NCBI RefSeq assembly: GCF_017348835.2
Contig: NZ_CP071375.1
Source of the DNA: Escherichia coli
Lineage (GTDB): Bacteria; Pseudomonadota; Gammaproteobacteria; Enterobacterales; Enterobacteriaceae
Length of the DNA stretch: 64,000 bases
Strand: one strand, 5' to 3'
In this document: positions 16,911 to 17,241 of the stretch, in pieces
Position numbering within the stretch: the stretch's first letter is position 1
Layout: each line of letters starts with the position of its first letter
Notes under the pieces: generated by a model
Database searches by the model: none
Told to the model about the DNA's origin: nothing
Seen by the model: only the letters and a program-made list of their open reading frames with translations
Translations under genes and position numbers: made by a program

Positions 16911-17241
16911 CTATTGATTATCAACAGGAAGAAAAGAAACCAAACGTAACCCATCCAAATCCACCGGAATACGTCTGTTTTCTCCCCAGGTCTGAAATTC
17001 AAAACCCGACTCGGTATTGGTCGCCCAGGCCATCACCACATTTCCGCAACCAGCCAGTTGGGTAATTTGCTGCCAGATCATCTCCCGAATACGTTTTGAT
17101 GTATCACCAACATACACACCGGCACGCACTTCCAGTAACCGTCGTACTACGCCGCAGACTGGCACGTTCGCCGCGTTTCTCCTGCAATTCCTCATGCCAT
17201 TTGCGCAGCGTGGCTTTGTGCTCCTCTTTTACAATACTCAT
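16911..17241 (-). pseudogene. Deletion remnant: cse2 (casB) first ~27 codons fused out of frame to the last ~75 codons of cas2
   Basis: ATG at 17241-17239 overlaps the cse1 stop and reads [27 protein letters not shown] in a frame that terminates ~18 codons later ([45 protein letters not shown]). A different frame from about 17140 down to 16911 encodes the recognisable Cas2 C-terminal region [12 protein letters not shown]...[18 protein letters not shown]...[13 protein letters not shown]. Confidence 0.8.

Follow-up and report, generated by a model that had tools for sequence, protein, structure and literature searches.

What became of the genes between cse1 and cas2 is the question raised by the type I-E locus of the 64-kb stretch of Escherichia coli DNA analysed here (the window): the end of cse1 is followed by a short cse2-like start and the end of cas2, and the CRISPR leader comes immediately afterwards. 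An earlier reading made from the letters alone (the sequence-only reading) explained this arrangement by an internal deletion in the cas operon that had removed cas7, cas5, cas6e and cas1 from a cse2-to-cas2 stretch of roughly 3.8 kb. Alignment to the intact operons of strains EC974 and FORC_044 confirmed the deletion and also bears out which genes are missing and roughly how much was lost, while the position of the junction and the nature of the join needed correction, and a second lesion of the operon, an insertion sequence (IS) in cas3, was absent from that reading.

The general layout of the locus (cysDNC, iap, CRISPR1, cas genes, hok/gef, cysHIJ) is standard for E. coli. In the window hok adjoins cas3, a neighbourhood that defines the "E1" operon variant of Almendros et al. 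(2014, PMC3903273), and the operon is therefore assigned to this variant. The operon of the O157-type strain FORC_044 (L002) and that of EC974 (L004), the closest complete relative for cse1, were used as references. The intact E1 operon of EC974 and O157:H7 (cas3-cse1-cse2-cas7-cas5-cas6e-cas1-cas2, by hok/sok) occupies the same site (iap-CRISPR1 ... cas3-hok-cysH) and has the same repeats and leader as the window; compared with it, the window is 3.87 kb shorter and its cas3 is split by an IS. A 1,089-bp element (23252–24340) encoding a truncated "integrase core domain" protein lies between hok/gef and cysH; it is also found in F2_81, another strain considered below, and is not found in EC974. 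Farther along, the annotation gives yqcE (37620–38824), the gene of an MFS transporter, as a pseudogene with a frameshift.

The array, the leader and all of the remaining cas sequences are on the minus strand. The AT-rich leader of CRISPR1, read directly from the sequence, fills positions 16815–16910 between the array and the stop codon of cas2, and window positions 16800–17137, which include it, are 100% identical to FORC_044, as is the cas2 remnant. The cse1 (casA) gene (17238–18800) was taken as intact in the sequence-only reading, and it is: the 520-aa product has no internal stop, a tblastn search aligned residues 1–520 to EC974 Cse1 with 98.7% identity (seven amino acid differences), and the gene counts as a type I-E cse1. 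DNA identity to EC974 reaches 98.5% over 17141–18900, mainly cse1, and the cse2 stub with the 3' end of cse1 is 99.6% identical to FORC_044. The identity across 16800–18900 is of a mosaic kind: cas2 with the leader and the cse2 stub with the 3' end of cse1 are O157-like, but the whole cse1 is only 88% identical to O157 and 98.5% identical to EC974. This pattern implies that a putative recombination breakpoint lies within cse1, and it agrees with the partial substitution of genes described by Almendros et al. (2014, PMC3903273).

Three-way alignments with FORC_044 and EC974 show that the match of the window to the cas2 side extends to 17137 and that to the cse2 side begins at 17136, the bases TA at 17136–17137 (a junction without strand) being common to both breakpoints. 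The junction had been expected within 17140–17165, and the alignments move it just outside this interval, to 17136–17138. Compared with the intact operons of the same variant, 3,871 bp (FORC_044) or 3,875 bp (EC974) are missing between cse2 and cas2, close to the size that had been estimated. The removed part comprises cse2 codons 36–178, the whole of cas7, cas5, cas6e and cas1, and cas2 codons 1–22. Tblastn searches with the Cas1, Cas6e, Cas5 and Cas7 proteins of EC974 yielded no match anywhere in the 64-kb window; by the same searches the window lacks cas7, cas5 and cas6e, which membership in type I-E requires, and its adaptation module is incomplete, with no match for Cas1 and a Cas2 devoid of residues 1–22. 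What remains is a degenerate locus, in which truncated remnants are collinear with intact relatives that carry the missing interval at the same site.

The junction is not confined to one genome. Positions 10850–23400 of the window (12,551 bp) show 100% identity to the E. coli strain PE164 (pig, Nanjing; NZ_CP114128.1), and the exact 61-nt junction was found in all ten loci that were fetched, namely that of PE164 itself and those of nine other assemblies (five from NCBI and four from Logan, the latter made from separate sequencing runs); it is also present, with 100% identity, in the complete genome of strain F2_81 (pig, Australia). A literature search on F2_81 gave unrelated matches only. All matches to the operon in the collection are chromosomal, with a single place in PE164, and the carriers of the deletion are near-clonal, differing by 0–3 SNPs in 6.4 kb. 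The junction is rare: PE164 and F2_81 are the only two of 5,426 complete E. coli genomes to contain it. The operon segment itself occurs in 2,732 of the 5,426, and in 2,628 of these 2,732 no less than 80% of the 4.2-kb cse2-cas2 stretch lies at a single place, which leaves about 4% with less than 80%. An intact operon of the same variant with an equally short cse1-to-cas2 spacing would have spoken against a deletion; none was found among the 2,732 complete-genome carriers, and the short interval is not a chance pattern. That the interval is an assembly collapse or misjoin in a strain that really has the full operon, an artefact that the sequence-only reading had left to be checked and that one assembly alone could not exclude, is virtually inconceivable and was rejected, since the same 61-nt junction recurs in independent assemblies, including complete genomes from China (PE164) and Australia (F2_81) and further NCBI and Logan short-read assemblies, and since breakpoints that share just 2 bp, with no repeat, leave an assembler nothing to collapse on.

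The sequence-only reading described the event as a fusion of cse2 codon ~27 to cas2 codon ~20. A join of cse2 and cas2 DNA stands, but cse2 keeps 35 codons, cas2 lacks codons 1–22 and no fusion protein is formed. The 5' stub of cse2 (17138–17241; alignment to EC974 and tblastn) opens, as had been noticed, with an ATG that overlaps the stop codon of cse1 (ATGA) and belongs to a 45-aa ORF (17104–17241, minus strand). The first 35 residues of this ORF are the N-terminus of Cse2 (33/35 identical to EC974), and its last ten are cas2 sequence read out of frame, ending with a stop at 17104. With 35 of 178 codons left and a frameshifted tail, cse2 (casB) can no longer be counted as present, and PGAP labels the stub as a Cse2/CasB pseudogene "missing C-terminus". 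Another frame encodes the C-terminal part of Cas2, also in agreement with the earlier reading: the cas2 3' fragment (16911–17137; tblastn, profile and alignment) consists of codons 23–97 and the stop codon, and it is left without a start codon of its own. In the frame 16911–17195 (minus strand) tblastn recovers residues 23–97 with 100% identity to EC974 Cas2, and the remnant covers positions 20–87 of the 87-position Cas2e profile TIGR01873. The Cas2 of the window aligns one-to-one with the K-12 Cas2 of PDB 4P6I, which places the loss at residues 1–22. These residues presumably form strand β1 and the start of helix α1 of the ferredoxin-like fold, and the remnant is unlikely to fold stably because both are gone.

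Translation against EC974 shows the cse2 and cas2 frames to be out of register at the join, so that no Cse2-Cas2 fusion protein is encoded and the word "fuses" holds for the DNA only; an in-frame fusion was rejected on this ground. A wider form of the same idea is that the deletion yielded a new functional protein, either such a fusion or a Cas2 with a replaced N-terminus. Open frames for the latter do exist, one of 94 aa from the ATG at 17195 and one of 84 aa, which PGAP calls "cas2e" from the GTG at 17165. With 88.5 bits the product of the shorter frame exceeds the TIGR01873 cutoff of 33.15, and records of this chimeric "Cas2e" exist for 20 contigs (38 blocks of the collection). Nevertheless, a functional new protein appears extremely unlikely: the Cas2 part would have to fold stably without residues 1–22, its partner Cas1 is absent from the 64-kb window and the carriers are too clonal to reveal purifying selection.

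As for the mechanism, the sequence-only reading had proposed an alignment to an intact operon to map the breakpoints and look for microhomology, and this alignment gives a perfect overlap of TA only, 2 bp long. The octamers around the junction are imperfectly alike, reading CAGTAGCC next to cas2 and CATTAACC next to cse2. Within 60 nt to either side of each breakpoint, direct and inverted repeats do not exceed 6 nt, and neither an IS nor an IS end was found at the junction, where cas2 and cse2 sequences abut directly with the 2-bp overlap. Such a junction is the signature of illegitimate, microhomology-level recombination or of replication slippage.

Insertion sequences are nevertheless an obvious candidate in this strain. 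The cas3 gene is divided into a 5' fragment of codons 1–36 (22795–22902; tblastn residues 1–36, 100% identity) and a larger part comprising codons 36–899 (18890–21484; tblastn and comparison); between the two, cutting the larger part off from promoter and 5' end, lies an IS3-family element of 1,310 bp on the plus strand (21485–22794), and an intact cas3 is not present in the window. The element sits after codon 36, has terminal inverted repeats starting with TGAACCGCCCCGG and a 3-bp target duplication (GTG), and its ORFs match NF033516, the IS3 family transposase; it probably resembles IS629/IS1203. A second copy, 99.8% identical, interrupts gudP at 58449–59758, and its transposase is marked as frameshifted by PGAP. 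The deletion might consequently be ascribed to an IS, through an adjacent deletion or recombination between two IS copies; the strain is IS-rich, with the same IS3-family element in both cas3 and gudP, and most of the minor arrangements described by Almendros et al. (2014, PMC3903273) were attributed to IS elements. Two observations stand against this origin. Neither an IS nor an IS end is present at the junction, where the two gene remnants meet directly. Furthermore, F2_81 and the majority of the other carriers have an uninterrupted cas3 (899 aa), and the IS at this site is absent from F2_81 and EC974 and was found in PE164 only; as these carriers bear the deletion but not the cas3 IS, the IS came later. 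An IS- or repeat-mediated deletion was rejected because there is no IS end at the junction and the breakpoints lack nearby repeats of more than 6 nt, and IS involvement is, in our estimation, very unlikely. The preferred explanation is that one illegitimate-recombination event at 2 bp of microhomology, with no IS taking part, removed about 3.87 kb from the E1-variant type I-E cas operon.

Decay of the locus did not stop with the deletion. Sister carriers have independent IS junctions in cse1, at the equivalents of window position 17642 (L008) and of 17686/17687 (L016 and L017); the IS3-family elements that cut cse1 in these sisters lie at 4091–5524 of L008, at 1–213 of L016 and at the contig end of L017. 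What remains of cse1 in L008 is linked through the IS to a lambdoid integrase/excisionase that neighbours a pectinesterase gene (probably ybhC), an arrangement suggestive of a large rearrangement mediated by the IS. Three separate secondary IS insertions in a near-clonal group are what relaxed selection on the leftover genes would produce, with the caveat that the genomes of deletion carriers are also IS-rich.

The CRISPR arrays were left behind by the deletion. Twelve matches to the type I-E repeat were found in the window, with none expected by chance, and they form three arrays with 29-nt repeats, spacers of approximately 32 nt and an adjacent leader, all three on the minus strand. CRISPR1 (16541–16814), beside iap and with its leader-proximal end at 16814, contains four perfect 29-nt type I-E repeats, four spacers and one degenerate terminal repeat (16541–16569). 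PGAP predicts a 57-aa "hypothetical protein" at 16650–16823, which sits wholly in the repeats and spacers of CRISPR1 and is almost certainly a spurious gene call. The other two arrays were delineated by repeat matching: a CRISPR2 remnant (40375–40464) of two degenerate repeats and one spacer, the spacer being widespread in E. coli (about 4,000 complete genomes), and CRISPR2.3 (40967–41301), with six repeats and five spacers, which was orphaned by the loss of the cas genes and four of whose five spacers occur only in the arrays of PE164 and F2_81 among the 5,426 complete genomes.

Comparison of CRISPR1 between carriers bears on whether these arrays are frozen, as had been proposed. CRISPR1 does not differ between PE164, F2_81 and eight further loci; its three spacers flanked by perfect repeats are shared by F2_81 and nine of ten other carriers, and the leader-proximal spacer is the same in all ten carrier loci. 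The exception is L014 (SRR21833425), whose CRISPR1 has two spacers and differs only at the leader-distal side, where it carries a spacer, TCGGCGTCCTG..., not found in the other carriers; this array implies either a longer ancestral array followed by differential loss, or recombination, as far as can be judged from its spacers. Spread of the deletion to a different background was considered for L014 and rejected, the divergence being limited to the array and three SNPs, as in a member of the same clone. The shared leader-proximal spacer and the restriction of differences to the leader-distal side fit, weakly, arrays that may no longer acquire spacers; the fit is weak because near-clonal carriers are expected to have identical arrays in any case.

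The consequences for function can be predicted from the general biology of type I-E systems, in which Cas6e processes the pre-crRNA, Cascade needs Cse2, Cas7, Cas5 and Cas6e, and Cas1-Cas2 integrates spacers. Without Cas6e the pre-crRNA would be left uncut; without Cse2, Cas7, Cas5 and Cas6e Cascade would be unable to assemble; and without Cas1 and with a truncated Cas2 no spacer could be added. The products left over would be those of cas3 and cse1, a peptide of 45 aa at most from the cse2 stub, and a cas2 fragment without a start codon. Loss of crRNA processing, interference and adaptation is accordingly predicted, and with these gene losses the three arrays would become inert relics, able only to lose units. 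We consider it very probable that a single illegitimate recombination inflicted this loss-of-function lesion on the type I-E operon of a pig-associated E. coli clone and rendered its arrays inert.

Similar cases of decay have been described. Partial or interrupted cas-E arrangements, mostly linked to IS elements, are known in E. coli and Shigella (Almendros et al. 2014, mBio, PMC3903273), and incomplete type I-E operons were found in 7 of 237 uropathogenic E. coli (PMC12736100); both are events of this type, in which the I-E system decays and the CRISPR arrays stay behind. The differences lie in the junction, which is IS-free in the window and mostly attributed to IS elements in the former cases, and in the gene set, since the incomplete uropathogenic operons consistently kept cas1, cas2 and cas3 (PMC12736100), whereas the window lost cas1 and kept cse1. 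A closer parallel was found in E. coli PI12 (pig, Cuba; L003 6352–6524), which has an independent deletion of 3,205 bp that took out cas6e and cas5 entirely and cas1 and cas7 for the most part. The PI12 deletion, like that in the window, is internal, IS-free and removed Cascade backbone genes together with cas1, but its breakpoints are different and overlap by up to 8 bp, and both cse2 and cas2 are spared. Strain BL21 carries orphan I-E arrays without cas-E genes. The same state was reported for phylogroup B2 E. coli (PMC12736100), and such strains resemble the window in keeping arrays without machinery; however, the whole cas-E set is gone there, while cas3 (IS-split), cse1 and two gene stubs remain in the window. 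The event described here is a lineage-specific example of known I-E decay, particular in its IS-free junction and in the gene set lost, with cas1 gone and cse1 kept.

Whether the loss was neutral or favoured by selection is a separate question. According to an adaptive reading, the loss was positively selected, for instance by ending CRISPR attack on a useful plasmid, a prophage or a self target. The CRISPR2.3 spacer at 41180–41211 perfectly matches 31 plasmids of other E. coli (59.5–216 kb, mostly about 90 kb) with an interference-proficient ATG PAM; the protospacer (L006 2502–2533), which this PAM adjoins, lies in a region that shares 96% identity with phage D6, which is a phage-plasmid of the P1 type. 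The clone also persists on two continents, and a second internal deletion arose independently in another pig isolate, PI12. On the other hand, none of the 31 plasmids is hosted by PE164 or F2_81, and the segment falls short of 80% in one place in about 4% of its carriers, so that a partial or interrupted operon is no rarity. The chromosomes of PE164 and F2_81 show only two places for nine spacers, both of them arrays, with no self-target; a self-targeting spacer as the driver was rejected, as the spacers of these strains match their own array places only and the matched plasmids are not theirs. The type I-E system of E. coli is, moreover, normally silenced by H-NS, and this general knowledge makes neutral loss simpler to accept. 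Positive selection in any of these forms finds no support in the data and is improbable, and its most specific version, that the clone lost Cascade and Cas1 to tolerate elements matched by its own spacers, such as D6/P1-like phage-plasmids, and that the PI12 deletion reflects the same selection, is a shade more doubtful still.

The finding is of little consequence outside annotation and strain biology, and the cse2 pseudogene was already flagged in RefSeq. For annotation, it means that the 84-aa RefSeq "Cas2e" of the clone is a remnant, not a working gene, and that tools counting cas3, cse1 and cas2 as evidence of a type I-E system would misclassify these genomes. For strain biology, the exact junction provides a clean clonal marker for the pig-associated lineage found in China and Australia, and the later IS insertions in cse1 and cas3 offer a small example of stepwise decay after a first inactivation.
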